From an uncultured archaeon (GTDB taxonomy: Archaea > Thermoplasmatota > Penumbrarchaeia > JASLWR01), in NCBI GenBank assembly GCA_964342815.1, contig CAYFHS010000002.1, forward strand, positions 56,690-120,689: DNA of 64,000 nucleotides, read 5' to 3'. Both the position numbers and the translations under genes were made by a program. The notes below the pieces were generated by a model, which was not told the DNA's origin, did not search any database, and worked only from the letters and a program-made list of their open reading frames with translations. The first letter of the stretch is position 1. Each line of letters starts with the position of its first letter. Shown piece after piece: positions 7,173 through 43,510 of the stretch.

Positions 7173-7324
7173 GGACCTGCTCCCGTTTCACTCCGGTGTC
7201 CACTTCGTTCCGCAACACCCAGCAGGTGTTGCTACACCCTCGGTAGATGTACCTACAGGTGTAACTGCGTCACACCTGAGCCCTCGCCTTTTAAGCCTAC
7301 GGGCGACGTAAGAAACGCAGGTCC
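7173..7324 (+). repeat. Multi-hairpin intergenic element, copy A
   Basis: Closed by GGACCTGC/GCAGGTCC; internal hairpins GCAACACC/GGTGTTGC, GGTA/TACC, CAGGTGT/ACACCTG; motif blocks shared with 30044-30150 and 43306-43510. Confidence 0.8.
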
Positions 7325-7531
7325 GACACAAAAATAACAGAAATTAAGGGTGGGGGCACTACCCCCATGAACGGCATCTACGCCGTTCCAGTGCATTTCA
7401 CAAACCTGCACCCGGGCCCCAATTAGAAAGCTAAGAGATATCAAACTAACAGCCTATCTGTGCAGATGGTAATTTCGATTACCCGATTAAAATAATTAAA
7501 ATCGTTTTACGAAAGAATTATTTAACAGTAA

Positions 7532-9334
7532 TTGAATAATATATCTATGTATACGAAATCACGTGATCTTAAGGTTCTCATCTACAGTGTAGCCATTTTT
7601 ACCATATTTGCCGTGTTAATATCCGCTCCCGTGCTTGGTTCGGTTCCCCCCCAAAAAATAAATTACCCGGATGAACCAAACAGAGCTATCGCACCCATCG
7701 AGCTGGTATCACCCAAAGAAGCCAGGGTCGTAAGTGGTATAGGAATTGAATTAAGCTGGAACGTTGCCGGCGAATATTCCGGATCATACTCTTTTGATGT
7801 ATATGTATCCGAAGATGGAGAAAAAGTCACGGCATCAAACAAGGGTACTCGACTGGGCAGCGGTCTGACCGAAACATCCCTGAAGGCCATGATCCTCCTC
7901 GATAAAACGACGTATTACTGGAAGGTAGTCGGGAAAGATATTGGGGACAACGAGCAGATCTCGTCACTTGTTGGACAATTTTCCATCGACAGATCGATAC
8001 CGGACCCGGATAACTATCTCGGCATATCGGTATCGAATCCGAATCCGAGATACGGGGAAGAGGTATATTTCGCTGCCATGGTCCCCAACACATTCGGCGA
8101 TTTCATTAGCTATTCGTGGGATTTTGAAGACACAAACGAGAATATCGAGGGAAGCGACAAAGCAAAGGTCACGCATAGTTTTCAGCGACATGGAAAAAAA
8201 CTCGTTCAGCTGACGGTATCAGATGAGCTTGGTAACGAACAGAGTACATCGGTTCTGGTAGAAGTGGAGGGAGGTGAACCTGCTGCGTCTATGTCGGGGG
8301 GGAGTATGAAAGATAGTTCGTACTCGTCTATTATCGTTGTCTGTATGGTAGTGTTTTTCATAGTTATTATCATAGTGGTAGTCGCCATTTCGGCGGCAGC
8401 AAAGGAAAAGGAACGTCAGAAAAATCAGTTTGCGGTACCTTCCGAGATATACGAGACAGAGGACAAGGGAGATCACCCGGACGAGAACCCCGAATTCATC
8501 TACAACATGGAATGGTACATGGAGAAGGGATTTCGAAAGGTGACCGATGAAATGAAGAATATGACAAAGGCCACCAAGGACCTTGTCAAGGGCGAACGAT
8601 TCGGAAAATACCTATCAATCTTCATCGTGGCCTTTGCCATTTCCACCATGGTCTCGGCATACCTGCAGTCCAATTCCAACCAGGAAAGTACCGAAAAATA
8701 CAGCCTTGCAAAAACCCACCTCGAAGATTCCAACACCCTTCTTCTTCAGGCGGAGAGCATTATCGACAACGACGTCAATCTGCTGGAACAGGCAAGGCGG
8801 TATTACGTGGAAGGGGAGAACCTCCTGTGGAAGTATATCCAGAAAACGCTGAACGGAACACCCGAAAGTTATTACAACGAAATAGGGGACTCGCTCATTG
8901 CTTTCAACAACGCCTACGGACTGATCGTTCAGAGCAATTTGTATAGATCAAAGCATGTCACACGCAGCTACGCCGTCAACCTTGTGGATTTCGATGATTT
9001 CGTACCCTGGGACTACAGTAACGAGCAGATAAAACTTATCTCCATAGACATATTGGGAGTTCTGGAAAAATACAGATCCGATTTCGACAGCTACGAGGAA
9101 GATCTGAAAGAAGAATCAATCTCTCTCCGGGGATATGCAGATTCGCAGTTCGACGGGGCCAATGAACTGGGTGACGAAGGCCTCTCATTTACCAGAGCGA
9201 CGACATTCTTCTCCATCGCCACGTCGGTGATAGGGATTTCCATCGTACCTAAGAACAAGTATACAAGGAGAATTCTCATATTCGTCGGTTTGGCAGTATT
9301 TGCTTCCGGTTTCTTTTTCATACAGATATATTAG
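7532..9334 (+). CDS. Membrane protein with fn3-like and PKD exodomain, TM, and a C-terminal multi-TM domain (DUF4337-like)
   Basis: TYYWKVVG motif; YSWDF.D...VTHSF..HG...V.LTVSD PKD motif; central TM; two further TM regions. Confidence 0.7.
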   Translation: MNNISMYTKSRDLKVLIYSVAIFTIFAVLISAPVLGSVPPQKINYPDEPNRAIAPIELVSPKEARVVSGIGIELSWNVAGEYSGSYSFDVYVSEDGEKVTASNKGTRLGSGLTETSLKAMILLDKTTYYWKVVGKDIGDNEQISSLVGQFSIDRSIPDPDNYLGISVSNPNPRYGEEVYFAAMVPNTFGDFISYSWDFEDTNENIEGSDKAKVTHSFQRHGKKLVQLTVSDELGNEQSTSVLVEVEGGEPAASMSGGSMKDSSYSSIIVVCMVVFFIVIIIVVVAISAAAKEKERQKNQFAVPSEIYETEDKGDHPDENPEFIYNMEWYMEKGFRKVTDEMKNMTKATKDLVKGERFGKYLSIFIVAFAISTMVSAYLQSNSNQESTEKYSLAKTHLEDSNTLLLQAESIIDNDVNLLEQARRYYVEGENLLWKYIQKTLNGTPESYYNEIGDSLIAFNNAYGLIVQSNLYRSKHVTRSYAVNLVDFDDFVPWDYSNEQIKLISIDILGVLEKYRSDFDSYEEDLKEESISLRGYADSQFDGANELGDEGLSFTRATTFFSIATSVIGISIVPKNKYTRRILIFVGLAVFASGFFFIQIY

Positions 9335-9360
9335 TCCGTACGAGTGGCTCGGAGAAAAGA

Positions 9361-9657
9361 TCAAAATACCGGGAATAGGATCAAGCCAAGCAGTAATCCG
9401 AAATACACAACAAAACAAGCGGCCCGGACGACAATATTTTTCGTACGATTGTAAATAAATACCAATCCAGGAATGCCGACAGCCACCATGAAAGCTCCGA
9501 ATAGTATCATTATCAGAAGCCCGGTCCGGCTCAATGTGGTCTCAAACCCCACAAAGATGAATATGAGGCTGAAAATGGCCGTGCCTATGAAGAAGCATAT
9601 GGCCTCGAGACACCCCGACTTTTCCTTTTTTTGATTTTTCTTTTCTTTTTCATTGAT
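9361..9657 (-). CDS. Small 3-TM membrane protein; start uncertain (open frame extends upstream of the called GTG at 9552)
   Basis: Frame is open to 9675 (INEKEKKNQKKEKSGCLEAICFFIGTAIFSLIFIFVGFE...); GAGGTG RBS at 9671-9666 precedes three ATC codons. Confidence 0.55.
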   Translation of the reverse strand: MNEKEKKNQKKEKSGCLEAICFFIGTAIFSLIFIFVGFETTLSRTGLLIMILFGAFMVAVGIPGLVFIYNRTKNIVVRAACFVVYFGLLLGLILFPVF

Positions 9658-9742
9658 GATGATAGCACCTCGAAATCACCCCCAATGGGTGATTTTTTCT
9701 GTTTCCGCGCTAATTAATTTTTCTTTGATCTGGAGACCCAGC

Positions 9743-12700
9743 TTATACCCAGCCATCCCACTCCTCACAATCATCCATTTTATTACCAAATTCTTCCCCC
9801 TCATCACCCACTTCCACATCGTCCTCATCTCCGACCTCGATCCCCATATGTTCATTTTCGCCCTTCCCGCGCCGATGAACAAAGAAAAATAATACCGCTG
9901 CCACACCCACAACTACAATCACCACCAATATCCAAAGCATCAAGGGTCCAAGAAAGCCTTTCTCATCTTTTCCGGCATCATCCCCCCCGTTATCCACGGT
10001 TGGTGTTATCACGTTTATCGTCCAACTGTAATTATGAGAATTTCCGGCCGGATCGAGAATAATCACCCGCAATTCATGCGTTTCCGGTCCTTCTCCAGCC
10101 ACAAATGAAAATGAATTTTTTCCGTTATAAATTATTTCCTGACCCAGATACCAGCGGAATTCCAGGTCGTCCGGCTCGCCCGGGGAAACCGTCACGGCAA
10201 ATTCAATAATTTCACCTCCCTTCACGGTTATCTCATCCATCTCCGGCGTCCTGCCCTCAATCATTGGAGGCAGATCATCCCTCGGAACCACCGGACCCAC
10301 CCACTGCGGCCCTTTATTGGAATTGTTGGCAAGATCAAAGGCCATGACGGTAACATAATAACTGAAACCATCTTCAAGAGAACTGCCGTTGCACGTGGTG
10401 AGCGATAGCTCTTTAACACTTATATCTTGTATTGCAGCCTCCGGCTCCAGCTGAAGCGGATCAACGGAATCATTCTTTGTTATGTAAACAGAATAATGGC
10501 CGAAATCGCCAGCCGTATCATCAACAGGCGTCCAGCTTACCGTAACGGAATTCCCGTTATCGGCAGGGGTGTCCATGGCCATAATATTCAAAACCGCTCC
10601 CGGCGGCGTCAGGTCCGGGGGCTCGAGGAGAACTATCGCAAGATCGGAGCCCAAAAGGCCGTCGCCGTCACTGTTGTTGTATCTGTCCGATAACGTTGTC
10701 TCCACGAGATATTCGCCGGCAGCGAATCCCTTAGTATTCCAAATAAAATAATAACTTCCTTCAAACCCTTCCATCAGCGTTTCATTTACAATAATATCTC
10801 CAGCGGCAGACGATATGGCGATAGTCCCCGCTAAACCGGTTTCGCCGTACATTTCAATGACCCTTATAACCACTTCCGAGCCGGGAGGATAGGTCCCGCT
10901 TGTGTCAAGCCCTACGGAAGAACTTACCGCCAAGATAACGGGTGCCGTTTCGTCCACCAGGGCCATGATCAGATCCGGGCTGCCGGGCAGACCGTCCCGA
11001 TCCGTATTCGAGGAAATGTCAGCGAGAGTGGTCTCGACCTCGTAATCGGCTGAAGGGACCGATCCGTTGGTGTTCCATATATAGTAGTATATCCCGGACC
11101 CGGCATTCTTCAATTCCCCATTTGCTACCCTTCCGCCGATGATATCGGAGTTTATAGTAACGGTGCCGGTCAAACCTTCCTCGCCAATTGCCTCCGTCAC
11201 CGTAATATTTACCAGAGAACCGATCTCGTACATACCGTCGGTATCGTTACCTACCGAAGAAGCTACTCTCGATATCTCAGGCGCCACGTTATCGATCAAT
11301 CTTATCTCGAGGTCTGGCGAATGCGGTAAACCGTCATGGTCGCCGTTGCCAAGTTCATCAATAAGAGTGGTCTCCACATGATAGACGCCCCCCGGACACC
11401 CGGCAGTATCCCAAATAAAACGATAAACGCCCCACCCGTCATCCACAAGCTCAAATTCTTCGCTAGACCCAACTGAACCATTGCCATCCGGTTCGGCCAA
11501 TCTAATGGCGATATTTCCTTGGAGCCCGGCCGTTCCATGTCCCTCGACGACAGTAAATTCCACCGTGTGACCCCGCACATATTCTCCAGTCTCATTGCCC
11601 TTAGTCGCCCATACATGGGTGATCTCCGGCGGCGTATCATCCAAGATTTTTTTTACGGTAACGTTTGCGCGCGACATCTCCCGTATATCAATCCTCACTC
11701 GGCAGATGCACTGCTCTCCGGGCGTGTTGATAAGCTGTTCCACTTCCAGGTGTCGGTCAAGCAGAAGGTTTCCGGCAAGGTCGCGCCATTCTCCCACTGC
11801 TCCGTAGCTCTCTCCCGGTTCAAGCGGAGGCATGATGAACTCCAGAAAACCGTGATCGAATTCTTCCAGTAATTCATTCACCACTCTTCCGGTAACCTCG
11901 GCAGCGGTACCGTTATTGGACGGGGTGAAACTAATGTTGATCTTACCTGCGGGAATAGCCGACAGGTCATCACGGACACCGTTGCCGTCACCGTCATAAG
12001 TGTATGAATCTATCCGCGAGCCGTTAACCCTTACCAACCTGAAACCCTCTTCGCCCCCCCATCCTTCCTTGGTTCCGGATTCTGTGAGAACGAAAAGCGG
12101 AAACTCCCTCTCGTCCACGCTGCCGTCCTCGATCACGTCAACAAAATCCTTATCGTGCACCCGGTTCTCGTGCTCGTGCCCGTGAAAACTGAAGGTAACG
12201 TTATATGCACGCATAAGCTCACGGTATTCCTCGGCGTTCTGTTCCAGATACGTGTCGTTTCCGAAAGGGGTAAGATACGTGGTATTGATAGGTTTATGGT
12301 GCATGAAAGTAAATTGATTTTTACTATCCATGTTCGCCGCAAGTTCAGTCTCTATCCATGCCAGCTGTTCATCCGTTATGCCGTTCCCCCCTGACGATCC
12401 GTTGTCGTTCATGGGCCAGGTCACCTGTGAATCTATTCCAATAAAATGAGCCTGTTCACCGTAATCAAAGGCAAAGTTCAGCTCCGGACTGATAAATTCC
12501 TCATAATCGCCGATATAGGTGGTGGGCCAATAACTGTAATCGTGGTTACCCGGTACCGTGTAGATCGGAAATCCCAGGCCCGGATCGCTGGCAACCCTGT
12601 AACGGTACATCTCGTCCTGGTGCTCCGGCGGAATATCCTCCATATCATACAGGTCCGGCAGTTTGTCGCAAACATCCCCGGTGTTTATCACAAAAGCGGG

Positions 12701-13282
12701 TCTGATGAAATTCAGTTCGCGGATAATATTGCCGAAATCCTCGTAGGTATCCATGGATTTGTTTCCTATGTGTATGTCCGTTACATGAACAAAATCGAAT
12801 TTTTCACTGAATTCGCTTATAACCGATACCGAGTGGGGTTGCGTGTAAGCAGTTCCATTTGCTGTTATGGTCAGATCATATATATCGAGTAACACGTAGG
12901 GAGGGATCTCGAGGTCAACCAGCCAGAAGGAGGGCTCAAATACAGCCGAAGAAACGTTCAACCTGAAATTCGAATACCATGTGGATAATTCGGCGCCCCA
13001 TGATATTCCCGCGTACTCTTCCGGAACCTCGATCCTCGCCGTGAAACTTTCACCGCGCAGCTTCATCTCGGGACAGCCCAGACTTGGATGGATTATCTTT
13101 ATGGAATTTGGGCCCCGAAAACCTCCTGCAGGTGATCCATGCGCAGCATTCATTTCCGGATCAAAGGGTTGTACCCCTTCTCTCTCGTGCGAAAATGTCC
13201 AAGCGAAAAAAAAAGTAAGCACGCATAGTAATAACACAAAGTAAACGGAAGCTGCTTTTCGAATGATCATTCTCGTCATCAT
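9743..13282 (-). CDS. Secreted calcineurin-like metallophosphoesterase with three repeated Ig-like modules, an fn3-like domain, TM anchor and acidic tail
   Basis: DIH, GD, GNHD, H and HGH metallophosphoesterase motifs in order; three repeats of P.I..V.SS.G.D..G.Y..G..V...V.E..GE.GL.G...YY.IWNT; C-terminal TM. Confidence 0.85.
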   Translation of the reverse strand: MMTRMIIRKAASVYFVLLLCVLTFFFAWTFSHEREGVQPFDPEMNAAHGSPAGGFRGPNSIKIIHPSLGCPEMKLRGESFTARIEVPEEYAGISWGAELSTWYSNFRLNVSSAVFEPSFWLVDLEIPPYVLLDIYDLTITANGTAYTQPHSVSVISEFSEKFDFVHVTDIHIGNKSMDTYEDFGNIIRELNFIRPAFVINTGDVCDKLPDLYDMEDIPPEHQDEMYRYRVASDPGLGFPIYTVPGNHDYSYWPTTYIGDYEEFISPELNFAFDYGEQAHFIGIDSQVTWPMNDNGSSGGNGITDEQLAWIETELAANMDSKNQFTFMHHKPINTTYLTPFGNDTYLEQNAEEYRELMRAYNVTFSFHGHEHENRVHDKDFVDVIEDGSVDEREFPLFVLTESGTKEGWGGEEGFRLVRVNGSRIDSYTYDGDGNGVRDDLSAIPAGKINISFTPSNNGTAAEVTGRVVNELLEEFDHGFLEFIMPPLEPGESYGAVGEWRDLAGNLLLDRHLEVEQLINTPGEQCICRVRIDIREMSRANVTVKKILDDTPPEITHVWATKGNETGEYVRGHTVEFTVVEGHGTAGLQGNIAIRLAEPDGNGSVGSSEEFELVDDGWGVYRFIWDTAGCPGGVYHVETTLIDELGNGDHDGLPHSPDLEIRLIDNVAPEISRVASSVGNDTDGMYEIGSLVNITVTEAIGEEGLTGTVTINSDIIGGRVANGELKNAGSGIYYYIWNTNGSVPSADYEVETTLADISSNTDRDGLPGSPDLIMALVDETAPVILAVSSSVGLDTSGTYPPGSEVVIRVIEMYGETGLAGTIAISSAAGDIIVNETLMEGFEGSYYFIWNTKGFAAGEYLVETTLSDRYNNSDGDGLLGSDLAIVLLEPPDLTPPGAVLNIMAMDTPADNGNSVTVSWTPVDDTAGDFGHYSVYITKNDSVDPLQLEPEAAIQDISVKELSLTTCNGSSLEDGFSYYVTVMAFDLANNSNKGPQWVGPVVPRDDLPPMIEGRTPEMDEITVKGGEIIEFAVTVSPGEPDDLEFRWYLGQEIIYNGKNSFSFVAGEGPETHELRVIILDPAGNSHNYSWTINVITPTVDNGGDDAGKDEKGFLGPLMLWILVVIVVVGVAAVLFFFVHRRGKGENEHMGIEVGDEDDVEVGDEGEEFGNKMDDCEEWDGWV

Positions 13283-13321
13283 AACGAAACCGCCGGGGCG
13301 TGTAAAATAAAAATTTTTTGT

Positions 13322-15145: not shown

Positions 15146-15157
15146 GACACTGCCCCG

Positions 15158-15973
15158 CTAATCCAATAACTCAATGGAAGTTCGGTAGGTGGAATGAAGT
15201 TCGACGATATCCCGGTTCTGCCTAGCCGTTAGCTCGTGGAAAATAATTGATCGTCCTTGCGTTAGCCCGGAATGTTTTACGGCCAGTACGTCCCATAGGA
15301 CAATCTTCATGGACGAGGTTGTATCCATGAGAATGACGTTCAGAACGTGGCCCGTGCTCCCGCTTCTCCGAGTGAAATCCCTAAGGTCAAATACTGTGGC
15401 GATCTCTCCCTTTACGCTGTACGTACCCCCTACCTGGATATCCTCTATAGGTGTTATATTCTTCTTTTTCTCCGGTGGAGCTTCAAATTCAGAGAAGTCT
15501 TCCGGGTCTAAAACTACGGCACCCCATTTGCCCGGTGATATCTGTCTCCCGTAGTTGTTCTCTTTCACCATTCCGTTGGCGATCTTTATTTTAGAACCTG
15601 TTTCAATTTTCTTTTCCAATAATGTATCAATGCACTTCTCGTCCCATATCACTACTTTTATCCGTCCCGTGGCATCCCCTATGGTGAAGCTAAGCATCTT
15701 CCCTTCCTTCCCGGTCTTTCTTCTATAGTTATTCACCTCAAGTTCGGAGATTACGAGACCGTAAATTGTGGCTGAGAGACCATCGGTGAGGTCTTTTATG
15801 GGAATGGATGACGCAAGGTCGATGCCCAAATGACTGGCGGCAATATAGGAGGCAGCCAGCCTGTCGAAAAGGTCTCCGGAATCTGCCAATACAGATTCAG
15901 TCTTCTCAACGTAGCTTTCGAACAATCCCCCCTTTGCTGCGAGAGCGTCGATTTCCTCCTGTGTGAAGGGCAT
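15158..15973 (-). CDS. rpa: Replication protein A-like OB-fold ssDNA-binding protein
   Basis: Two OB folds: G.EGKMLSFTIGDATGRIKVVIWD and G.TGHVLNVILMDTTSSMKIVLWD. Confidence 0.85.
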   Translation of the reverse strand: MPFTQEEIDALAAKGGLFESYVEKTESVLADSGDLFDRLAASYIAASHLGIDLASSIPIKDLTDGLSATIYGLVISELEVNNYRRKTGKEGKMLSFTIGDATGRIKVVIWDEKCIDTLLEKKIETGSKIKIANGMVKENNYGRQISPGKWGAVVLDPEDFSEFEAPPEKKKNITPIEDIQVGGTYSVKGEIATVFDLRDFTRRSGSTGHVLNVILMDTTSSMKIVLWDVLAVKHSGLTQGRSIIFHELTARQNRDIVELHSTYRTSIELLD

Positions 15974-16091
15974 AATATACTAAACACAATCAATGTATTT
16001 GTAAATTACTGTAATGAATTGACGCCGCCTGCTTCGAGGAACGAGAGGGATATGGAAATATTTTTATCGGGTCGGGGTGATGGGGTAGCTG

Positions 16092-16478
16092 ATGACCGAA
16101 GGGTGTTTATTCTGTGATTTGGATAAAAATAATGATCGTGAGATACTATTTTCCTCCGAAAGGCTCGTGGCTGTATGGGATGCTTTTCCGGTAACTCCGG
16201 GACATATTCTTATTATTAGCAAAAAACACAGAAACGATTTTTTCGAGTTGGAGGGAACGGAGTACCATGAACTGCAGGGTATGATACTGCGAGCCCGGGA
16301 ATTTATCAAAAACGAAGGAAAATCCCCTGACGGATACAACATAGGAATGAACTGCAATGAAGCTGCGGGTCAGACCATCATGCACTTTCACTGTCACGTG
16401 ATTCCACGCTACCGGGGCGATACAATGAAACCGAGAGGCGGCGTAAGACACTGTGTTGCCGGCAAGGGAATTTATTGA
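16092..16478 (+). CDS. HIT family hydrolase
   Basis: CLFC N-terminus; DAFPVTPGHILIISKKH; GYNIGMN.NEAAGQTIMHFHCHVIPR. Confidence 0.95.
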   Translation: MTEGCLFCDLDKNNDREILFSSERLVAVWDAFPVTPGHILIISKKHRNDFFELEGTEYHELQGMILRAREFIKNEGKSPDGYNIGMNCNEAAGQTIMHFHCHVIPRYRGDTMKPRGGVRHCVAGKGIY

Positions 16479-16548
16479 TGAATTTTGATGAAGCATATTG
16501 GTTTATCAACAGAATTGTCGATTGCTGTTTCCTGCATCCTCGTGGGAC

Positions 16549-17373
16549 TTATGGAAGTAGCGGACACCTCTTTTCCGTTACCCTTATCCTTTCGAGAACT
16601 CCCCGGGATATTGTCAATGGTGAAAAACTCGACAAAAAGTCGAGATTTGCAGCTTGACAATGTTCGCGGAATCGCGGTCCCGAAGGGCCGATTCCGCTGA
16701 ATAGAACACATTTATCCCTGTTCATTGACGCGCTTCCAAGCAGCCATTCGACTATTTCCCGGCAGTGAAGGGCTCCGAAGAACGCCACTGCGCTGTTGTC
16801 CCTTCTCATCAACTCGAAGATCAAGTGTTCCAACATGACCATGCTTCTTCGGGTTATACTGCGCTTGTAAAATTTCTCCGCACCGACCTCATCTACGATC
16901 TCTATTATCCCTCTCCAGTAATTCTCCAAACTTTCTCTCATTCCACCAATAAGAAGAAACCTGGTGGAAAGTGATTCAAGATATAGGATATACATTTCCG
17001 AGGCGGCCTGATCCCTCTCCTCTGGAGTCTCGACGTAGGCGATCTCTTTGCCGTTTTCCAATGAATAATTCTCTGCCCACCTTTCCGGTATGAATGTCTC
17101 TCCGAGGGAGGAGTAACCGGCCCTCTGAATCAGCGAAACTGCCTCGTCGACGAAAAGTTCCTCGATCTCGGCAGGGTACCCAAGCTCCTCGAGGATACCT
17201 TGAATAATTCCGACCTGATGACGGCTCAAGGCCTCCTTAACTTTCGGCAGTACATCACTGACACCTGCAACGAGAGGATGCTCGAACACGATAGTGTTTG
17301 CCCCGTGGATCAATGGTGCAAGAGTTGTCGAAATATCTTTGTCGAGAATATGATGAGTCCCAACAAGTACTAT
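16549..17373 (-). CDS. TraB/GumN (TIKI)-like protein, probably starting at a non-canonical ATA
   Basis: Frame is open upstream of the called TTG to ATA at 17373, adding IVLVGTHH; also IVFE, VETPEE, RRSMVM and FGALH motifs; AAGGTG RBS upstream. Confidence 0.55.
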   Translation of the reverse strand: MVLVGTHHILDKDISTTLAPLIHGANTIVFEHPLVAGVSDVLPKVKEALSRHQVGIIQGILEELGYPAEIEELFVDEAVSLIQRAGYSSLGETFIPERWAENYSLENGKEIAYVETPEERDQAASEMYILYLESLSTRFLLIGGMRESLENYWRGIIEIVDEVGAEKFYKRSITRRSMVMLEHLIFELMRRDNSAVAFFGALHCREIVEWLLGSASMNRDKCVLFSGIGPSGPRFREHCQAANLDFLSSFSPLTISRGVLERIRVTEKRCPLLP

Positions 17374-17441
17374 TCAGTATAACACCTTGCTTTGTGTTGA
17401 GAAAAAAACTATAAAAAGCTAAAGGGACCGTGAAATTTACC

Positions 17442-30043: not shown

Positions 30044-30150
30044 CGAGACCAGCGACCCCCAGGCGAACGTCCGTAGGAAGTCAGGTGCTGACTTTCCGAG
30101 GGCGCAGGCGCATCTACTGATGCACCGGAACGTAGTGGGCGCTGGTCTCG
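30044..30150 (-). repeat. Multi-hairpin intergenic element, copy C
   Basis: Closed by CGAGACCAGCG/CGCTGGTCTCG (11 bp); minus strand reads CACTACGTTCCGGT...GCCCTC-GG[AAAGTCAG cac CTGACTT]CC-TACGGACG. Confidence 0.8.
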
Positions 30151-30437
30151 TCTATGAACCGATAAGTAGAAGTTCAATATCACTAAAGGTCGGCTCACCG
30201 CCGACCCTGAGGGCAAGCCCTCTTTCTATTGATTTTTCTTTTTAGATCTAGTCGCCGTTTGCTGAAGCTCGGCGACCCTCTTAAGATAGAAGGAATCATA
30301 GGTTAAAAGAAGTGATAGTATCTTAGGATAACACAGTATGATCCTTCCAGATACCTGTTCCCTGCGGAAGAATCTACAAAAGTAATAAAAAGGTGATACG
30401 TCATAATTGTTTTAATCTGAAAGTCTAGGGTGGTAAG

Positions 30438-33347: not shown

Positions 33348-33399
33348 TTTTTATAACCCAAAGAGGTTTTGGGGTGTCTCGAGAGATGTCCCGATGTGT

Positions 33400-33437
33400 C
33401 GAAGATTCGGACAATATTTTTAAATGCATGTACTTCA
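33400..33437 (+). promoter_or_regulatory. Putative promoter with a CGAA-N2-TTCG palindrome and TTTAAA TATA box
   Basis: CGAAGATTCGGACAATATTTTTAAATGCATGTACTTCA; near-identical copy at 38677. Confidence 0.55.
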
Positions 33438-33486
33438 ATGTGTGATGTAGAAACAAACGCTAAAAGAAAAATCCGAAGGGTAGAGC

Positions 33487-36400: not shown

Positions 36401-37926
36401 GTGACGTAACTATCATCGATGGAAAAGAGAAAGGTGACGTTGTAGAAGTCCGTGCAAATAACGTTTCTATAAGCGGATTTCATATAAGGAACGCAAGTAA
36501 AAGTTCTTTCCATGGTGATGGAGATTATGCCATATATTATAATTCAGGAATAAAAATTTATAATGATAGTAGTAAAATAACATACTGTTCATTTAGTTCA
36601 TCTGGATTATATGGCGGCAGTATATTTATTTACAAATCTAATAGACATATGATTTACAATAATAATTTTCTTAATAAAATTCAAAAAACCAGGGACATCC
36701 TTATTATAAAATCTGATAACATCCTCATTAGAGAAAATTTACTCCACAGTTTAGGGATTTGGGACTCGGATGCAAACGTTATCAGAAATAATTCATTTGG
36801 TTATTATAATAAAAATGTAGGCGATCCTGGAAATGGGACGACACTTTATAATTCTAATAGAAATATAATTGAATATAATACATTTAATTTATTGGAATCC
36901 GGCCTTAACATTTCGAATTCCGAGAATACCACGATCCAATACAACAGATTCACAAACAATTCTCAAAGTGTTCGGCTTTCAGGGAAAAATAATCTCGTCT
37001 ACAATAATATCTTCATGAACAACAGTAATGAAGAATACGAATCACAAGCCTTTGACTGGGAATCCGATAACAAATGGTATCTCGGTCAAACTGGTAATTA
37101 CTGGTCGGATTGGACAGGCCCGGATGCGGACAACGACGGGATAGTAGACATTCCCTACAATATCTCGGGTCCTGCTGGTGCACAGGACTTGTATCCTCTC
37201 GTACACCCTCCGAACATCAGTTTCAATGAAGGTTCGCCTGACAACGATACGGAGAAGGATTCTGACGGGGACGGCTGGAACGACACATATGAGCTGCAAT
37301 CAGGAAGCGATCCCTACAATAAAAAATCCACTCCCTTGGACTGGGATGGTGACGGCCACCCCAATAACAAAGATGCCTATCCCCGTGATCCAAAACGGTG
37401 GAAAAAAGAAAGAACGGATATGTCCAACATACTTCTGTTCATCGGTATTGGTTTTATCATACTGCTGATCAGCATCATGTGTTACAGTCGAATAAAAAGG
37501 AAGAATGCGCTCAAGAACGACGCACGTAACCGTATCCACAGCTATATCCATAAGCACCCGGGCGAGCACCGCAGCGGTATCGGCAGGCAGCTTGGAATGA
37601 ACGAAGGAACATTGAAACACCATCTCCGGAAACTGGAGCAGACGGGAATGGTTCAGGTCAGGCGAGATGGGAAATACAAATATCTGTATCCCGCGGGATT
37701 TAACCATTCGATATCTCTTACTCCGATCCAAAAGCAGATAATACAAATTCTAACAAAAAATAAAAACTCCACTACCCAGGTAATAGCCAAGCAACTCGAT
37801 AAAGAAAGGCAGACCGTGGTATATCACATGAAGAATCTCGCAGACAAAGGTGTTCTCAGGTCTAAAAAGACAGATAAGAAGGTATACTGGTCCGTGGACG
37901 AAAACGTAGAAAATACCTTCAAATAG
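33487..37926 (+). CDS. NosD/parallel beta-helix surface protein with Ca-binding repeats, TM and cytoplasmic tandem winged-HTH domains
   Basis: N..I.NN.C..N..GI repeats; NYWSDW and DxDGDG motifs; TM; R.RIHSYIHKHPG...LG.NEGTLKHHLRKLE and IAKQL.K.RQTV.YHMK.L..KG HTHs. Confidence 0.85.
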   Translation: MNHHRLKSVMAVVLTFIVVLSYFPCMRNSSSNGDIGSSSRGNTIIVNASGGEDYTKIQWAINNASEGDTVLVMPGTYREKVVVNKSINLTGAGSESTIIDAGKSGTPLHIYSDWANVSGFTVRNSSKNSAGIYISGEHNRVANNNCSFNKYGISVYYNNSIINNTCIGNSIGINLFRTKNNYFSGNIIEHSDRAGIYLAESHSNVFSENICRYNNNSGIKIDGSHFSRNNTFISNTCNSNGLNGIDFWYTVNDTLENNTCSNNGYSGILLSEVNNAILKNNTASDNRYGIRIENYSTNNVISGNKMHANGISLQPITSFQNTVDDSNIVNGGRVYFWNGVRNRIIPEGAGQVVLYNCSDIVIENQNLTDTDSGIELWFSDNCTIENNTFNNNIKHGILLEGSVNTTIENNTCNNNKMMGVKLHGTEKILIRNNTFDSNIYYGLDICCSTFNWVYHNSFIDNNGGGKQAEDSGALTTWNTSSEGNYWSDWTTPDNDSDGIVDDPYTLAGLKKSQDHFPLARPVSDHFRNIQAPKQPEKDADGDGYNDTYENASGSDPYNKESTPLDWDGDGIPNEVDVNPHVFDGTVVDSNITENTNWTVEKSPYIINREIIIFNGSTLNIGRGVTVYFNGSGSFSTDEFSGGGRIRAFGRKDNKINFISKVPPDMGHRAFNLSLRDFIHFEYCSFKNIGEIYLAGTDNCEFYKCIFQNSQGIVFNERFVRTTETASENNTIRYCSFYNMPNAIKILSNLRYLDPNRFYQNNFYNSSISLGFDPIDQISPLSSTWNESGYGNYWWDYNGTDLDGDGVGDTNLPWHGVDWCPLMKPYSENPPVIHPNSIPIAFVEERYSTNFTATDVDTLTQELYWTMITNAPWLNFSENQELYGTPTSSDVGTYWIYVEVSDGPNSDFKNFTLDVRSWPSESRVMIERTGKDFSSIQDAIDNASNGDTIRVHGGIYYERIVINKSISLIGKGSDVTIIDGKEKGDVVEVRANNVSISGFHIRNASKSSFHGDGDYAIYYNSGIKIYNDSSKITYCSFSSSGLYGGSIFIYKSNRHMIYNNNFLNKIQKTRDILIIKSDNILIRENLLHSLGIWDSDANVIRNNSFGYYNKNVGDPGNGTTLYNSNRNIIEYNTFNLLESGLNISNSENTTIQYNRFTNNSQSVRLSGKNNLVYNNIFMNNSNEEYESQAFDWESDNKWYLGQTGNYWSDWTGPDADNDGIVDIPYNISGPAGAQDLYPLVHPPNISFNEGSPDNDTEKDSDGDGWNDTYELQSGSDPYNKKSTPLDWDGDGHPNNKDAYPRDPKRWKKERTDMSNILLFIGIGFIILLISIMCYSRIKRKNALKNDARNRIHSYIHKHPGEHRSGIGRQLGMNEGTLKHHLRKLEQTGMVQVRRDGKYKYLYPAGFNHSISLTPIQKQIIQILTKNKNSTTQVIAKQLDKERQTVVYHMKNLADKGVLRSKKTDKKVYWSVDENVENTFK

Positions 37927-37967
37927 ATCGATATTGAAAAAAGCTAATAAAAAGCATGGAAGTATCT

Positions 37968-38369
37968 TCAATCTCCAATGAAAATAGTATCGTCCAATCC
38001 CCTGAAATGAGGATCGCCTGTTATAACCGGCGCGGAAACGGATTTGGCAGTTTCCAGAATTATTGCATCGGCCAGACCAATATTTTTTCTTTCCCCCCTC
38101 ATGACTTTTCGGGTTTTCCCGGCCCTTTCCGCGATCTCCAGTGTGAGGCCACAAATGAAGCTCTTGCTAATGATGAAATGCAGGTCATCTTCCCAGAAAT
38201 CCCAATTTTCCGCATGGTATTTGGCCGATAGTTCTGCTATTACTATCATGGGAGTCACACCCTTCTCATCCTCGACGTATTTGCGTACCGTTTCTCCCTT
38301 TCGGGAGCCTCGAAAGTACTCAATCCATGCGTAGGAATCGAATACACAATCATAGCTCATGGAATTCAC
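37968..38369 (-). CDS. vapC: VapC-like PIN-domain toxin
   Basis: VFDSYAWIEYF, VIAEL, GLADAIILETA, ITGDPHF acidic PIN motifs. Confidence 0.9.
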   Translation of the reverse strand: MNSMSYDCVFDSYAWIEYFRGSRKGETVRKYVEDEKGVTPMIVIAELSAKYHAENWDFWEDDLHFIISKSFICGLTLEIAERAGKTRKVMRGERKNIGLADAIILETAKSVSAPVITGDPHFRGLDDTIFIGD

Positions 38370-38550
38370 CTTCGTCTTCGGGTGTGAATTCCGTCATTTG
38401 CGGATGGGCTCCAAATTTCGTTTTGGGGATTGTCCTTTTGAGATCGATGAGATTATTTATAACCTCGTCTAGTGAGCTGGCATTGTATTCGCCCTTGATC
38501 TCCTTTAGGAGCTGAAGCGTATTTTCTCTCACCTGAATTGTCGTTGGCAT
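38350..38550 (-). CDS. vapB: Cognate antitoxin (VapB-like, RHH-type)
   Basis: MPTTIQV...TLQLL..IK......SLDEVI..L; overlaps the vapC start. Confidence 0.8.
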   Translation of the reverse strand: MPTTIQVRENTLQLLKEIKGEYNASSLDEVINNLIDLKRTIPKTKFGAHPQMTEFTPEDEGEFHEL

Positions 38551-38560
38551 TCTACCACTT

Positions 38561-38590
38561 AACTATAGTTATAGCTATAGATATAGATAA
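38561..38590. promoter_or_regulatory. Palindromic operator/promoter of the vapBC operon
   Basis: AACTATAGTT (38561-38570) and TATAGCTATA (38570-38579) palindromes directly upstream of the antitoxin start. Confidence 0.6.
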
Positions 38591-38676
38591 ATGTTTCTAA
38601 ACTGCTGTTGGGGATAGGATACGTTACGAGGCCGAAGTAATACCTAAAAAAGATGAAAGCATTGTCGAAATAGTAT

Positions 38677-38714
38677 CGAACATTCGAACAATATTTTTAA
38701 ATGTATGTACTTCA
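38677..38714 (+). promoter_or_regulatory. Second copy of the CGAA-N2-TTCG + TTTAAA promoter
   Basis: CGAACATTCGAACAATATTTTTAAATGTATGTACTTCA. Confidence 0.55.
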
Positions 38715-38756
38715 CTGTATGAATAACATCATAAGGAAATTTCGTAAGGGAAAAGC

Positions 38757-41700
38757 ATGAATAACCATATACTTAAAAGTGTTATGACAGTCGTCTTATC
38801 ATTCCTTTTGATACTATCATCCATGCCATTGATGTGTACATCTTCTTCAAACAATACTCTGAGAGTGATATCGAGAGGTAACACTATCATTGTAAATGCA
38901 TCCGGTGGGGGAGATTACACACACATTCGATGGGCTATCAGTAATGCAAGCGAGGGGGATACAGTCTATGTAGAGGCCGGAACATATTACGAAAATATTT
39001 ATATTGATAAGAGGATAAAACTTATCGGAGAGGGGGAGAATAAGACAATCCTCGAAGGAAATTGGATGAATGGTATTGTGATGATAATGGTAAACGACGT
39101 TCATATCTCAGGTTTTACAATAATCGAAACCAAAACAAATCCAGATTATTCAAGAGGAATTGGATTATGGGAGGCAAACGGATGCTGGATCGAAAATAAT
39201 GTCTTTACTGTAAGTCAGTCGGGAATAGATCTTGACGAATCTAGTAACAATACAATTTTCAATAACATTTTTGTTAATAATAATAATCATGGAATTTCAT
39301 CTAACGGCGCATACAATAATACAATTTTCGACAATATCTTCCTTAACAATACTCGTGGTATGAGTATGTACGAATCAGACAATAACATTGTAAATGATAA
39401 TCTATTTAATAATAATAATTTTGGTATTCTTACCAGTACATCTAAGAATAACAATATAAGCAATAATTCCTTTATGTCCGATGGTTCCGACATCTGGCGG
39501 AACGATATTTGGATATCCGGTGGTCAAAATAATACAATATCCAAGAATATATGCCAAACTCGTAAAGGCTACGGGATCAATCTTGAAGTAACAACCCACA
39601 ACATTGTTACCGGGAACGAAATGATGAAAAACGGCATTTACTTGAAGGGCTCTTCCATAGAGGAATGGACTACTCATTCTATCGATAAGCTTAACACAGT
39701 AAACGGTAAACCGGTAATTTACATGAAGAATTCAGTTGGAGGTATTGTCCCCAATGGCGCTGGTCAGATAATACTTGCCAATTGTTCTTCAGTTATCGTT
39801 GATAATCAAAACCTAAGCAATGGGTTATATGGTCTTCAAGTCGGTTACTCATCCAATAATACTATCAGGAACAATACTGTCTTGAATAATTATTTGTCTG
39901 GAATTTACATCTATGAATCAGACGGGAATATAATATCAAATAACACATGCAGTTCAAATGGCGAAAATGGAATCAGGTTGAGTGGTTCTGGTAATCATCT
40001 GATAAATAACAACTGCAATTCGAATGGAGGGTCCGGGATCTCAGCGGGTAGAAGAAGGAACAATATCTCCAACAACATATGTAATTTTAATAAAGGGAAT
40101 GGAGGCATATATATTTGGGGAAATGATAACACTATTTCTTATAATATATGCAATTCGAATGTCGAAATAGGAATTCATCTAACAGGCAGGGACAATACAT
40201 TTTCAAATAATTCCTGTTCATACAATGAAGATGGTATAGAACTTGTACGGTCGGAAAGAAATTCATTGTACAAAAATAACTGTTATTCGAATGTTCAGTC
40301 GGCTTTTGTTCTTTACGAATCTCACGATAACACATTAGATGACAATTATGCCATAAATAACAGCGCGGCAATTACTCTCGACACTTCTAAAAGGAATACT
40401 TTGGTCTACAATATAATGGATGGATGTGGAATATATATTGATGATCGTGGGCTTCCTGGTGATATAGAAAATTGGAATACACAAAACATTGATATTTCAA
40501 ATTTGGTAGATGGAAAACCGGTTTATTATTTGAAGAATGAAACCGGCGGTATTGTCCCTCCCAGTGCTGGTCAGGTGATCCTGGCAAACTGTACGGGAAT
40601 AACTGTTGAGAACCAAAATATTGGTAATGCCACTGTTGGCATTGGAGTATATTATTCATATAATAATAGCATCCTCAACAATACGTGCAGCAACAATATT
40701 TACGATGGAATAAAATTTTTTAATTCGAGCAAGAACCTGGTTAAAGATAACACAGTTACCTTAAACAACTGGAGTGCGATCTATCTTTCGGCTAAATCCG
40801 AGAATAATACTATTGACCATAACACCTGTAATTCAAATTACTTTCGTGGGATAGTAATTGGTGATTATTGGGGCGAGTGTAACAACAATATAATTATCAA
40901 CAATACCTGCTCTAATGCCTCATATGGGATACATATTAGCAGATCAGAAAATAATCTGATTAAGAGTAATATAATTCACAATAATTCTAGATATGGTATC
41001 GTTCTAAGTCGTGCCACAGATAATATGCTTAATAATAATAATTTGACAGAAAATGGTATTCAGATATGGGGGTTTTCACTTGAACAATGGAACACGCACA
41101 GGATCAACATTACAAACAAGGTTAACGGGAAGCCGGTCTATTATTGGAACAATGTCAGGAAGGGAAATATACCTAAAGGCGCCGGGCAGATAATACTTGC
41201 AAATTGTTCCGGTGTCAATATAGGAAACCAAGAGATATCAAATACTTCAACCGGCATCATCCTGGGATTCTCTCAAAACAACACAATTGTAAATAATTCC
41301 TGCAAAAACAATCTCTACGGGATAGAGCTCACGAAATCCTCAAATAATTATATCCATTATAATACTGCAAATGCAAATATGTATGCCGGGGTATCAATTG
41401 GATCGGATTCCGATGGAAATATTATTATTGAAAACACCATCAATTATAATTTTGGAGCTGGATTATCTTGTTATGATTCCTCTTCGAACATAATTTCAAA
41501 AAACATGATTTTTTCAAACGAATATAATGGTATTTATTATAGAGGCGAACTAGGTAGAATCGAGAACAACAATATCTCAAATAACTACTATGGAATCACA
41601 ATCGAACGAGAAACAAATTCACTCATAATTGTTAACAATGATATTTCAAACAATGAAAAACTGGGCCTTGACATCAGCAGATCTACCGAAAACAATCTGA

Positions 41701-42359
41701 TACATCACAACAATTTCGTAAAGAATAATAACGGCGGCATTCAGGCCCGGGATAATGGCACAGATAACGTGTGGAACACAAACACGGAGGGCAATTACTG
41801 GTCTGAATGGACTGCCCCCGACACCGATGAGGACGGTATTGTCGATTATGAATATCTCATTAATGGCACAGCTGGTACACTTGACAGATATCCCGTTGTA
41901 GAACCTGTTGATAAAACACTCCCCGTGGCTTATGGCGGGCAAGAAAAACTTGTTTATGAAGGAGCAACGGTTGAGCTGGATGGGACATATTCATATGATG
42001 ATACAGGTATTGAAAACTATACGTGGTCATTAGTTTACGACGATCGAGAAGTCTCAATATACGGCCGGAAAACGAATTTCACCTTTGAAATTCCGGGGAT
42101 TTACGAGGTGAATCTGACGGTTACCGATATCGATGGAAATGAGGCGCACGATCTTGTAATAATTGTAGTAAATCCATTGCCGGACGGTAATGTTCCGGAT
42201 GAGGCCTACTATCCCGGGAAAGAAGATAATCTCAGGACAGCATTATATGCCGTTATCATTGCAATTGTTCTCGTAATATTTGTATGGTTGGTAGTAAGAA
42301 AACGAAGGAACAAGATGAGATCTAGGTCACCAGAAGAAGAGCGGATGAAACCTAAATAA
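38757..42359 (+). CDS. NosD/parallel beta-helix surface protein with PKD domain and TM anchor (paralog of 33487-37926)
   Basis: Similar signal peptide and SRGNTIIVNASGG.DY; three W..H.ID..N.V.GKPV.Y...G.IP..AGQ.ILANC units; PKD; TM + RKRR. Confidence 0.85.
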   Translation: MNNHILKSVMTVVLSFLLILSSMPLMCTSSSNNTLRVISRGNTIIVNASGGGDYTHIRWAISNASEGDTVYVEAGTYYENIYIDKRIKLIGEGENKTILEGNWMNGIVMIMVNDVHISGFTIIETKTNPDYSRGIGLWEANGCWIENNVFTVSQSGIDLDESSNNTIFNNIFVNNNNHGISSNGAYNNTIFDNIFLNNTRGMSMYESDNNIVNDNLFNNNNFGILTSTSKNNNISNNSFMSDGSDIWRNDIWISGGQNNTISKNICQTRKGYGINLEVTTHNIVTGNEMMKNGIYLKGSSIEEWTTHSIDKLNTVNGKPVIYMKNSVGGIVPNGAGQIILANCSSVIVDNQNLSNGLYGLQVGYSSNNTIRNNTVLNNYLSGIYIYESDGNIISNNTCSSNGENGIRLSGSGNHLINNNCNSNGGSGISAGRRRNNISNNICNFNKGNGGIYIWGNDNTISYNICNSNVEIGIHLTGRDNTFSNNSCSYNEDGIELVRSERNSLYKNNCYSNVQSAFVLYESHDNTLDDNYAINNSAAITLDTSKRNTLVYNIMDGCGIYIDDRGLPGDIENWNTQNIDISNLVDGKPVYYLKNETGGIVPPSAGQVILANCTGITVENQNIGNATVGIGVYYSYNNSILNNTCSNNIYDGIKFFNSSKNLVKDNTVTLNNWSAIYLSAKSENNTIDHNTCNSNYFRGIVIGDYWGECNNNIIINNTCSNASYGIHISRSENNLIKSNIIHNNSRYGIVLSRATDNMLNNNNLTENGIQIWGFSLEQWNTHRINITNKVNGKPVYYWNNVRKGNIPKGAGQIILANCSGVNIGNQEISNTSTGIILGFSQNNTIVNNSCKNNLYGIELTKSSNNYIHYNTANANMYAGVSIGSDSDGNIIIENTINYNFGAGLSCYDSSSNIISKNMIFSNEYNGIYYRGELGRIENNNISNNYYGITIERETNSLIIVNNDISNNEKLGLDISRSTENNLIHHNNFVKNNNGGIQARDNGTDNVWNTNTEGNYWSEWTAPDTDEDGIVDYEYLINGTAGTLDRYPVVEPVDKTLPVAYGGQEKLVYEGATVELDGTYSYDDTGIENYTWSLVYDDREVSIYGRKTNFTFEIPGIYEVNLTVTDIDGNEAHDLVIIVVNPLPDGNVPDEAYYPGKEDNLRTALYAVIIAIVLVIFVWLVVRKRRNKMRSRSPEEERMKPK

Positions 42360-42524
42360 ATCTGCTATGTCATACCCAGGAGGCACGACATTCCTTATTT
42401 TCGTTACATGCTCTCCCGGCTCCTTTTTAATAAATGAGAAAGCATACAGATCCAAGTGCAAAAAATAGTCGATACCCTCCGGTAAGTCGATAATGAAAAT
42501 TACTAAAAAAATCAACCGGAACAA

Positions 42525-42746
42525 TCAGAAGGTCTCAAGCTTGAACATAACGTCCGAGCCTTTCAGCTCCAGCAGTATCTTGTCACCAAAGTTGAGTATC
42601 TCATCTATATCGGCCTCATGATCCCACTGGTACTCGAAGTCATACGCTCCTTCAATGGGGCGAAATCCCATTCCCAGCAGATGCTTCGTCACCTCGGATG
42701 GTTTGGAGCCGTTTGACGAGAACCACACAACGAGATATGTCTTCAT
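42525..42746 (-). CDS. Small conserved-looking hypothetical protein
   Basis: GGTGAG RBS; globular alpha/beta-like sequence; same orientation as its neighbours. Confidence 0.7.
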   Translation of the reverse strand: MKTYLVVWFSSNGSKPSEVTKHLLGMGFRPIEGAYDFEYQWDHEADIDEILNFGDKILLELKGSDVMFKLETF

Positions 42747-42834
42747 AAATTCTCACCTATTTACACTCAGCACGAAGGATTCAATCCTATTTAAACGTTG
42801 GTCATTCTTGGGAGATAATCAATAAGTGCACTCC

Positions 42835-43266
42835 TCAATATTTCAAAAATCGTTCCATTTCCTTCGCTTTGGCCACCCATTCCTTAACATCATCTCCGGA
42901 AGGTTTGTCGTTCACATCATCCAGAAATGCAATATCATATTCCTCGATTGACTTATAGAGCCGTTCCGGGTTACGCTGCGCGAGCTCGGGTATCGTATCC
43001 ACACCCACCTTTTCGAGCAGCCATGCCCATGGAGGTGTGATGGTCTCGATACGCAGAAGATCGGCCATATTCGCCATTGTGAGTATGTCTCCCTCGTGAA
43101 TTTCCAGTAAATCCGATATGATCTGGCGGTCGTTTCGGGTAACACACATCTCTAGGAATTCCTTGGTGGTGGTGATCTCCTGTTCTTCCAGCTTTTCCGC
43201 AATAGTATCGTTCACGCCGACCAGGACCCGGATCGGATAGTCTGTGGTACCTTTCTTCTTTGCCAT
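42835..43266 (-). CDS. DUF4332-like helix-hairpin-helix protein
   Basis: GV...AEKL....I.T; ANMADLLRI......A.LLEKVGVDTIPELAQRNPE.L; PS...V.EWV..AK. Confidence 0.85.
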   Translation of the reverse strand: MAKKKGTTDYPIRVLVGVNDTIAEKLEEQEITTTKEFLEMCVTRNDRQIISDLLEIHEGDILTMANMADLLRIETITPPWAWLLEKVGVDTIPELAQRNPERLYKSIEEYDIAFLDDVNDKPSGDDVKEWVAKAKEMERFLKY

Positions 43267-43305
43267 GCGATAACCCCGCTTTTGATCATATAGGTATTAA
43301 TAATT

Positions 43306-43510
43306 CAGCGGATTCGGTCCCCGTTGGGGCTCCCGTTGCACTCCGGTCAATCAGAGATTGCCCTGAGCCCTCGGCCATGCTCGATGAAACAAGTTTCATC
43401 TGCACCCGACATATAATCGGAGATTATATTAGGATTCGGAGAAACTCTGTTTCTCCATCACCCTCGGCATGTATGCCTACGAGTTATGCCTGCGGGCTGC
43501 AAGATTCCGC
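43306..43510 (+). repeat. Multi-hairpin intergenic element, copy B
   Basis: CTCCCGTTGCACTCCGGT, CTGAGCCCTCGG, CACCCTC-GGCA/TGCC-TACG and GCCTGCGGGC blocks shared with copy A; hairpins GATGAAAC/GTTTCATC, ATATAATC/GATTATAT, GGAGAAAC/GTTTCTCC. Confidence 0.8.

Follow-up and report, generated by a model that had tools for sequence, protein, structure and literature searches.

A ~63 nt hairpin unit, probably REP-like mobile DNA, builds composite intergenic elements in an uncultured Thermoplasmatota archaeon

Introduction

Repeats of the repetitive extragenic palindromic (REP) kind are well studied in bacteria, where they are moved by a domesticated Y1 transposase. Some bacterial REPs of the GTAG type are inserted in small palindromes that also exist empty (PMC3733652), and the insertion sequence (IS) IS608 selects its tetranucleotide target by pairing it with a guide that lies within the element, 5′ of its hairpin (PMC5934647). 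No detailed archaeal equivalent of REP-like repeats was found in the literature that we searched. Here we describe a family of short folding repeats in an uncultured archaeon of the Thermoplasmatota, starting from a 64,000 nt stretch of contig CAYFHS010000002.1 (positions 56,690 to 120,689; assembly GCA_964342815.1) that is referred to below as the window. An initial annotation of the window had flagged three intergenic segments, at 7173, at 30044 (minus strand) and at 43306, as copies of one modular multi-hairpin element. Our analysis indicates that these segments are probably composites of small non-autonomous mobile DNA resembling REPs, bacterial interspersed mosaic elements (BIMEs) and the REP doublets known as REPINs, built from a unit of ~63 nt that folds on one strand.

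Architecture and abundance of the unit

Whole-genome BLAST and nhmmer searches of the metagenome-assembled genome (MAG) that contains the window (4.35 Mb, 116 contigs, 89% complete) identified a unit of ~63-68 nt as the common denominator of the three flagged segments. On the strand used in the initial annotation the unit reads X(4 nt)-CC-[RY-TWC-RY mini-hairpin]-TCCG-[hairpin 1, ~7 bp]-CT-X′(4 nt)-CC-TCG-[hairpin 2]-TAC-GG-X, and its complement, hereafter the GTAG strand, reads X′-CC-GTA-[hairpin 2]-CGA-GG-X-AG-[hairpin 1]-CGGA-[RY-GNA-RY mini-hairpin]-GG-X′. The word X precedes the unit and also ends it, and its complement X′ sits internally. We built a covariance model seeded with 14 units, which had been chosen by a pattern demanding a paired mini-hairpin. 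With 150 candidates scored, at least 133 matches at E ≤ 0.01 were found in the genome (top match 4e-17), four of which fall within the three flagged segments; a sequence-only nhmmer profile likewise returned 133 units, in 98 loci. Further copies genome-wide and in related MAGs, which the initial annotation had anticipated, were thus recovered by the covariance-model search. Median pairwise identity among units is 58%, with structure and a few linker bases kept, and 20 pairs of units in the genome are at least 93% identical, many of them with unrelated flanks.

Using a crude open reading frame (ORF) call that marks 89% of the genome as coding, 105 of the 133 units lie outside ORFs. Their orientation is unbiased with respect to the genes beside them (27 same, 24 opposite, 21 convergent and 16 divergent), and it was not associated with local GC skew, AT skew or gene strand either, a comparison that is uninformative in a fragmented MAG. 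Neighbouring units no more than 60 nt apart (n = 22 pairs) are direct in 16 cases and inverted in six. On the practical side, the repeats limit assembly, with several copies at contig ends (contigs ending inside repeats include G000 C52:109-287, C29:1-220, C33:300-520, C1:1-148 and C61:1-219), and they create spurious ORFs of 100-120 aa, for example at window 43260-43607.

Covariation and the folding strand

In a set of 51 distinct units, pairing is kept in 91.7% of pair cells. Shuffling the partners lowers this to 67.6%, and sliding them by 1-3 columns to 30-47%; compensatory changes that alter both sides occur at 17 of the 19 pairs. Units from the MAG of another genus gave 91.6% paired cells, again with compensatory changes at 17 of 19 pairs (53 distinct units). 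The earlier proposal that structure rather than sequence is conserved is therefore upheld, 92% of pairs being kept at a median identity of 58%. The mini-hairpin stems include all four R-Y types (GC/GC 30, GT/AC 26, AC/GT 23 and AT/AT 16) and are fully paired in 95 of 111 units. Read on the GTAG strand, the mini-hairpin loop is GNA in 76 of 111 units; GCGAAGC is the most frequent 7-mer, and GTGAAAC, ACGTAGT and similar forms also consist of a 2-bp stem with a GNA loop.

The internal tetranucleotide takes part in two alternative helices. X′ is paired with the block at the 5′ edge of the unit in 88% of cells; for the 3′-edge block the figure is 83%, with AU/GC/UA and CG/UA exchanges, and the two helices are mutually exclusive.

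Several features distinguish the two strands. Helix mismatches on the strand of the initial annotation are A.C in 43 cases and G.T in 19, so that on the complement the more frequent class becomes wobble pairs. The complement also folds more stably in 78 of 84 distinct units (mean −26.3 versus −21.9 kcal/mol, Wilcoxon p = 2e-14). On this strand hairpin 2 is preceded by GTA plus G, corresponding to TACGG, TACAG or TACGA on the other strand in 86 of 113 aligned units; most of the remaining units read TGC, and the C before the TAC-G/TAC-A block is highly conserved. A 2-bp stem closed by a loop of three bases is atypical of stable RNA motifs. The d(GCGNAGC) sequence, on the other hand, has been described as an "extraordinarily stable" DNA mini-hairpin (PMC13037366), and d(GNA) loops are known in DNA (PMC3201870). 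Taken together, the mismatch asymmetry, the greater stability of the complement, the GTAG tag, the GNA mini-hairpin and the unbiased orientation favour folding of the units as single-stranded DNA (ssDNA) rather than as RNA.

Insertion of units into existing hairpins

Comparison of related loci within the genome yielded 29 pairs of filled and empty sites. The added length ranges from 58 to 73 nt, with a mode of 63 nt (12 of the 29 pairs), and the junctions carry 0-7 nt of repeated sequence (mode 3). In the cleanest pairs, where the flanks are at least 98% identical, the junction repeats are TGC, GTGCC, GGTGT and GAG. Typical targets are the edge between stem arm and loop of a hairpin, or the X position of an oppositely oriented unit, and units also lie within other units, in both orientations. 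Tandem arrays of a further unit of ~65 nt (..GGACTGACTTCTTGGTAAAG..CCAGAATGGGACGGCTTTACACGTAAAGTCAGG), at G000:C5:92069-92192, C54:1-180, C17:65373-65558 and C18:26702-26754, also host unit insertions.

With the X register taken from the profile alignment, the four bases of each empty site were compared with X′ of the unit residing there, and 61 of 96 positions pair (permutation null 45.4 ± 3.5; none of 5000 permutations reached 61), X being mostly insert-borne in several of these pairs. Guide-directed targeting of the IS608 kind is plausible. The constant added length and sliding junction would result if a 63 nt circle integrated where a short word is shared, and also from repeated rounds of template switching at such a word.

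The three segments in the window

All three flagged segments are intergenic, and the conserved blocks and hairpins quoted for them in the initial annotation are all present at the positions given there. Their folding as ssDNA, compared with dinucleotide shuffles, gave z = −4.1 for element A, −3.6 for the minus-strand copy and −7.0 for element B; the fold and covariance results for the three segments are far beyond chance. They resolve into the following features (window coordinates).

7173-7324, plus strand: element A, a host hairpin of family H1 holding an outer unit that itself holds an inner unit; the GTAG strand is the minus strand
7173-7180, plus strand: 5′ arm of H1, GGACCTGC, pairing with 7317-7324 in an 8-bp closing helix
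7317-7324, plus strand: 3′ arm of H1, GCAGGTCC, the partner of 7173-7180
7181-7304, plus strand: sequence added relative to empty H1, the outer unit TCCCGTTTCACTCCG ... CTGAGCCCTCG-hairpin-CTACGGGC, interrupted by the inner unit
7200-7262, plus strand: inner unit of 63 nt, CCACTTCGTTCCG ... CTACAGGTGT (covariance-model match 7193-7262, 73 bits)
16608-16702, minus strand: empty H2 host repeat with no unit, showing the form of element B prior to unit insertion
30044-30150, minus strand: minus-strand copy, in another host hairpin with an 11-bp stem (30140-30150 with 30044-30054); the GTAG strand is the plus strand
30067-30145, minus strand: unit in the minus-strand copy (covariance-model match 67.3 bits, E 1.8e-14), with a long hairpin 2, GGAAAGTCAG-cac-CTGACTTCC
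43303-43578, plus strand: element B, in the H2 host repeat ATTCAGCGGAATCGG ... CGATTCCGCGAACATTGTCA ... TTGACAATAT, with GCGGA/TCCGC closure
43326-43378, plus strand: 5′ part of the unit in element B, GCTC-CC-GTTGCAC-TCCG-hairpin-CT-GAGC-CCTCGG (covariance-model match 32.6 bits)
43417-43486, plus strand: 3′ half unit in element B, a hairpin followed by ATCACCCTCGGCATGTATGCCTACGAG (covariance-model match 29.6 bits)

These boundaries change how the segments relate to each other. Although the initial annotation took them for copies of one element, they are not homologous from end to end; they are different hosts that carry a shared unit. The closing helix assigned to each copy does exist, but each such helix belongs to a separate host repeat and not to the shared element. 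The differing number and order of hairpin modules stand as described and are ascribed to nesting. For the third copy (element B) the GCGGA/TCCGC closure is real, while the extent proposed for it was too short, the empty site in a congeneric genome placing its limits at 43303 and 43578.

Element A illustrates the nesting most directly. The empty form of its host, H1, is a 33-nt hairpin (GGGCCTGCG-ACGTAAGAAA-CGCAGGCCC), of which the genome has at least ten empty and five filled copies. The outer unit was delimited against empty H1 copies and against a copy with one unit, at G000:C17:76925-77029, which corresponds to element A minus the inner unit; in the pair formed with C17:76954-77023 exactly 63 nt have been added, with a 5-nt junction repeat. 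The inner unit sits after GGTGT, which is the 5′ arm of outer hairpin 1; this word recurs at the end of the unit, and the complementary ACACC is present within it. In the minus-strand copy a single unit is placed directly 3′ of the 5′ arm of the host hairpin. The unit in element B is more complex: further hairpin modules and a half unit occupy its hairpin 2.

Filled and empty sites were also compared between relatives, as the initial annotation had proposed, and the site of element B is empty in the congeneric genome: at the orthologous site the flanks (81-83% identity) are adjacent and none of the 276 nt is present. In the congener, the gap orthologous to that of the minus-strand copy is occupied by another composite, consisting of an H1 hairpin and nested units. 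H2 is a separate family of ~95 nt (ATTCAGCGGAATCGG-small hairpin-CGATTCCGCGAACATTGTCAAGCTGCAAATCTCGAC-ttttt-GTCGAG..CATTGACAATAT) with two hairpins, one of them long and imperfect, and further copies lie at G000:C2:2634-2693, C1:197026, C27:16367 and C5:114668-114720. Given its absence at an orthologous site in the congener, H2 is probably itself mobile.

Short GC-rich hairpins adjoin the flagged elements at window 7345-7392 and 30186-30275 (for example GGGGG-cacta-CCCCC, GAACGGC-atcta-GCCGTTC, GGTCGGC-tcac-GCCGACC, GAGGGC-aa-GCCCTC and GTCGCCG..CGGCGAC). The GGTCGG and GAGGG hairpin pair recurs in the orthologous gap of the congener (L157:3010-3055). These hairpins may be terminators or members of another repeat family.

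Distribution across genomes

In a covariance-model search across the class and phylum, which covered 101 genomes with the window's own among them, units were abundant (at least ~50 matches each) in three: the window's genome, the congener and a genome from another genus of the same family. Two further genomes, one of them in the same family, have a single match each, and the remaining 96 have none. When a strict unit pattern was applied to 185,579 species genomes it matched two MAGs (31 and 7 loci) and gave five single matches, ~1.5 singles being expected by chance according to our estimate; the same pattern had no match in viral contigs and matched 15 metagenome contigs, mainly from one sample. 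Related MAGs that share the unit are Thermoplasmatota archaeon ETNP2_MAG_1 and uncultured archaeon SRP077602_co2_347. The unit is restricted to one small archaeal clade, being abundant only in three MAGs of a single family of the Thermoplasmatota.

Proposed mode of spread and points against it

The reading that we consider probable, that of non-autonomous mobile DNA, starts from direct observations: the unit itself, its covariation and abundance, its restriction to one clade, its intergenic and orientation-free placement, and additions of ~63 nt with short junction homology. Under this reading units would be copied into short targets prone to become single-stranded, usually the junction between arm and loop of an existing hairpin, and the hairpin entered could be part of a different repeat family or of a second unit, whichever way round that unit lies. 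The nested, modular look of the segments would follow, because units land in hairpins of other repeats or units. We infer that a unit would move as folded ssDNA, possibly through a 63 nt circular intermediate, and that the choice of landing site may depend on base pairing, or on a short homology, in the region of the tetranucleotide X. X′ inside the unit complements the flank as well as the end of the unit, an arrangement reminiscent of the guides and cleavage sites in IS200/IS605 and REP/RAYT systems (RAYT, REP-associated tyrosine transposase).

Several observations weigh against this reading. No mobilising enzyme for the units was found in the genome, which is 89% complete, and a profile search of it detected neither Y1_Tnp (PF01797) nor a TnpB family. 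The initial annotation had supposed that the elements are acted on by an enzyme encoded elsewhere; none was found, the genome being without Y1 or RAYT genes and the Y1 genes of relatives belonging to ordinary IS200 copies with ends of their own. Reverse transcriptases are absent from both the genome and the congener, and no gene recurs beside units in other MAGs beyond orthologous synteny. Y1 genes occur in 17 of the 101 relatives, 15 of which have no units. Those of two unit-rich relatives were rejected as partners, being of IS200 type with their own TTAC-flanked hairpin ends and with no units nearby. An Ssn-type GIY-YIG nuclease was rejected as well: the matches were only to proteins of ~600 aa (479-673 aa), present in five of five genomes including two that are unit-poor. 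Nor did a hidden transposase emerge among the multi-copy ORFs, which encode ferredoxins, sulfatase-modifying enzymes, TFB, acyl-CoA dehydrogenases, ABC ATPases and small regulators. Most of the 'empty' sites are paralogous copies of repeats and not true ancestral sites, and in several filled/empty pairs most of X arrived with the insert; therefore the guide model competes with plain microhomology. The alignments behind the covariation counts were fitted to the covariance model, kinship among units means that the strand statistics overstate independence, and the G-richness of the GTAG strand, which alone lowers folding energy, may account for part of the strand difference.

The remaining candidate partners were likewise set aside. 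A tblastn search of the genome with the TnpA proteins of relatives gave one spurious antisense low-complexity match only. The IS200 ends of relatives, CCAGTG..CACTGG and CCAGCTCC..GGGGCTGG, are TTAC-flanked and unrelated to the unit, and neither these ends nor Y1 transposase homologues occur in the window's genome. Intact IS200-type elements with Y1 proteins of 155-163 aa are present in two relatives (L083:1250-2010; L084:1340-2110, minus strand; L082:1380-1960, minus strand), those of L083 and L084 having TTAC at both the left flank and the right end. The presence of tyrosine recombinases does not parallel that of the units: one recombinase is common to all four genomes, including a unit-poor one, and of nine tyrosine-recombinase loci only one, a 107-aa recombinase fragment in a relative, has units nearby. 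Two neighbouring genes may be recorded here. The unit-bracketed PNPase gene at G000:C11:20126-22504 (L160:527-2905) is of bacterial type, with two RNase_PH domains, a KH and an S1 domain, and a 421-aa ORF without Pfam match lies between two unit-bearing gaps (G000:C12:40031-41296; L044:1815-3080, minus strand).

Alternative explanations

A bolder version of mobile DNA would make the unit a self-contained archaeal ssDNA transposon of 63 nt, passing through a tiny circle, with its hairpin-loop target set through pairing with its own variable internal tetranucleotide, each copy thereby bearing its own address, and moved by an enzyme other than Y1/RAYT, which would be a partner enzyme of a new kind for REP-like DNA; we regard this as unlikely, though somewhat ahead of the three explanations that follow.

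The units might instead be DNA structure sites useful to the host, binding chromatin, topoisomerase or replication proteins, and spread and homogenised by recombination. Bacterial BIMEs do bind gyrase and IHF (PMC3733652, PMC2817692), and the intergenic location, the retention of linker bases and structure over long divergence and the failure to find a transposase would all suit such a role. It leaves unexplained the discrete 63 nt additions at hairpin loop edges, the nesting in other repeats and the strand asymmetry of mismatches, and a distribution this narrow and patchy, in which a genome of the same family has one match, suits a selfish element better than a core cellular function. We therefore think this explanation improbable.

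Slightly less credence still goes to a family of small structured non-coding RNAs (ncRNAs) or of cis-acting RNA elements in untranslated regions, the copies then being RNA genes or mRNA-stabilising modules. The initial annotation had left open whether the elements are an ncRNA family or an ssDNA substrate; orientation, nesting, the filled/empty pairs and the GNA loop now speak for ssDNA of the REP kind and against ncRNA. An RNA role would accord with the strong covariation alongside conserved single-stranded linkers, with the toleration of wobble-type pairs on one strand only, with the flanking of a PNPase gene by units, and with the part that bacterial REPs play in mRNA stability (PMC3733652, PMC12306157). 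It accords poorly with a folding strand that has no orientation preference relative to genes, with units lying within units in both orientations, and with copy content that differs between congeneric genomes at orthologous gaps. The 2-bp stem with GNA triloop is, moreover, a DNA-stable motif (PMC13037366) atypical for RNA. Comparison with Rfam, suggested at the outset, found no known RNA family in the flagged segments.

Amplification without any enzyme, in which replication would switch templates where short homologies occur near hairpins and structure would do no more than stall the polymerase, appears to us the least probable of the three. It would explain junction homology that varies between 0 and 7 nt without a fixed target duplication, an X that comes sometimes from the insert and sometimes from the target, and the lack of an enzyme. 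Template switching does not readily account for insert boundaries in one narrow register with a near-constant added length of 63 nt, nor for linkers and a mini-hairpin kept with compensatory changes at 58% median identity, which imply selection on recognition beyond stalling.

Other candidates were rejected: an archaeal bulge-helix-bulge intron because on inspection the 4-bp helix joins flank and unit interior and not intron start and 3′ exon; a known RNA family because a scan of the 64-kb window with Rfam 15 gathering thresholds returned a tRNA-Arg only; a DDE-derived MITE (a miniature transposable element with inverted repeats) because the unit ends (CC-RY... / ...TAC-GG-X) are not inverted repeats and the junction repeats vary from 0 to 7 nt, in line with the earlier expectation that simple MITE-type terminal inverted repeats would be lacking; a TnpB guide-RNA scaffold or IS605 end because the genome has neither TnpB nor Y1; and a retro-element because neither the genome nor the congener has a reverse transcriptase.

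For the favoured reading of REP-like mobile DNA, the uncommon traits are the three-hairpin architecture with an ultra-stable DNA mini-hairpin, the recursive nesting at loop edges and the internal tetranucleotide that covaries with the landing site. If pairing truly sets the target, nature would have reprogrammed each copy as a module for single-strand insertion; if Y1 enzymes play no part, some new enzyme acting on single-stranded DNA would be at work.

Comparison with known systems

Among folded recombination sites, integron attC sites (including those of archaeal integrons) share with the units their putative action as folded single strands and the conservation of structure over sequence. 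The likeness to attC proposed in the initial annotation goes no further: the units are dispersed in ordinary intergenic gaps and not arrayed, no gene cassette ORFs lie between them and they are not beside full-length tyrosine-recombinase genes, so that placement and neighbours set them apart. Ssn nucleases with their NTS/SRM repeats (PMC11893778) offer another parallel, as hundreds of short hairpin repeats that are possible ssDNA nuclease targets, but no small GIY-YIG gene was found in the five genomes tested, which gave only the ~600-aa proteins. The 7-nt mini-hairpin of the unit, e.g. GCGAAGC, matches the d(GCGNAGC) class (PMC13037366, PMC3201870); known cases are single motifs studied mostly in vitro, whereas here the motif is a fixed part of a repeated genomic unit.

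Closer resemblances are found in the IS200/IS605 family (IS608, ISDra2; PMC5934647, PMC3597680, PMC5027513). Two imperfect hairpins and the lack of a fixed target duplication are shared with it. The unit may also resemble it in having, 5′ of a hairpin, a tetranucleotide with complementarity to both the left flank and the element's 3′ end, beside which insertion would take place; a circular single-stranded intermediate, as in that family, would account for the constant 63 nt addition. The differences are that the genome has no tnpA, that the IS200 ends of relatives are unrelated to the unit, that a single internal tetranucleotide would have to serve both unit ends, and that the pairing of the unit is a plain Watson-Crick helix extension in place of the cross-pairing network of IS608.

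Bacterial REP/BIME/REPIN-RAYT systems (PMC3733652, PMC2817692, PMC3116915, PMC8266576) are likewise high-copy, extragenic and hairpin-forming, confined to one lineage and organised in clusters and mosaics. On the folding strand, GTAG stands at the 5′ foot of a hairpin in about three quarters of the archaeal units, as it does in bacterial GTAG REPs (PMC3733652, PMC8266576), and in both G.T pairs are tolerated on one strand. Unlike REPs, the archaeal family has a fixed module of ~63 nt with two hairpins and a mini-hairpin in place of a single palindrome of 20-40 nt, nests recursively, has an internal tetranucleotide that covaries with the flank and the unit end, and resides in an archaeal host. 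Adjacent units are mostly direct, unlike the inverted doublets of REPINs, and no RAYT gene flanked by units was found in the genome or its two unit-rich relatives. On balance, the family may be described by analogy as archaeal REP-like DNA that would work most like the bacterial REP/BIME/REPIN systems.

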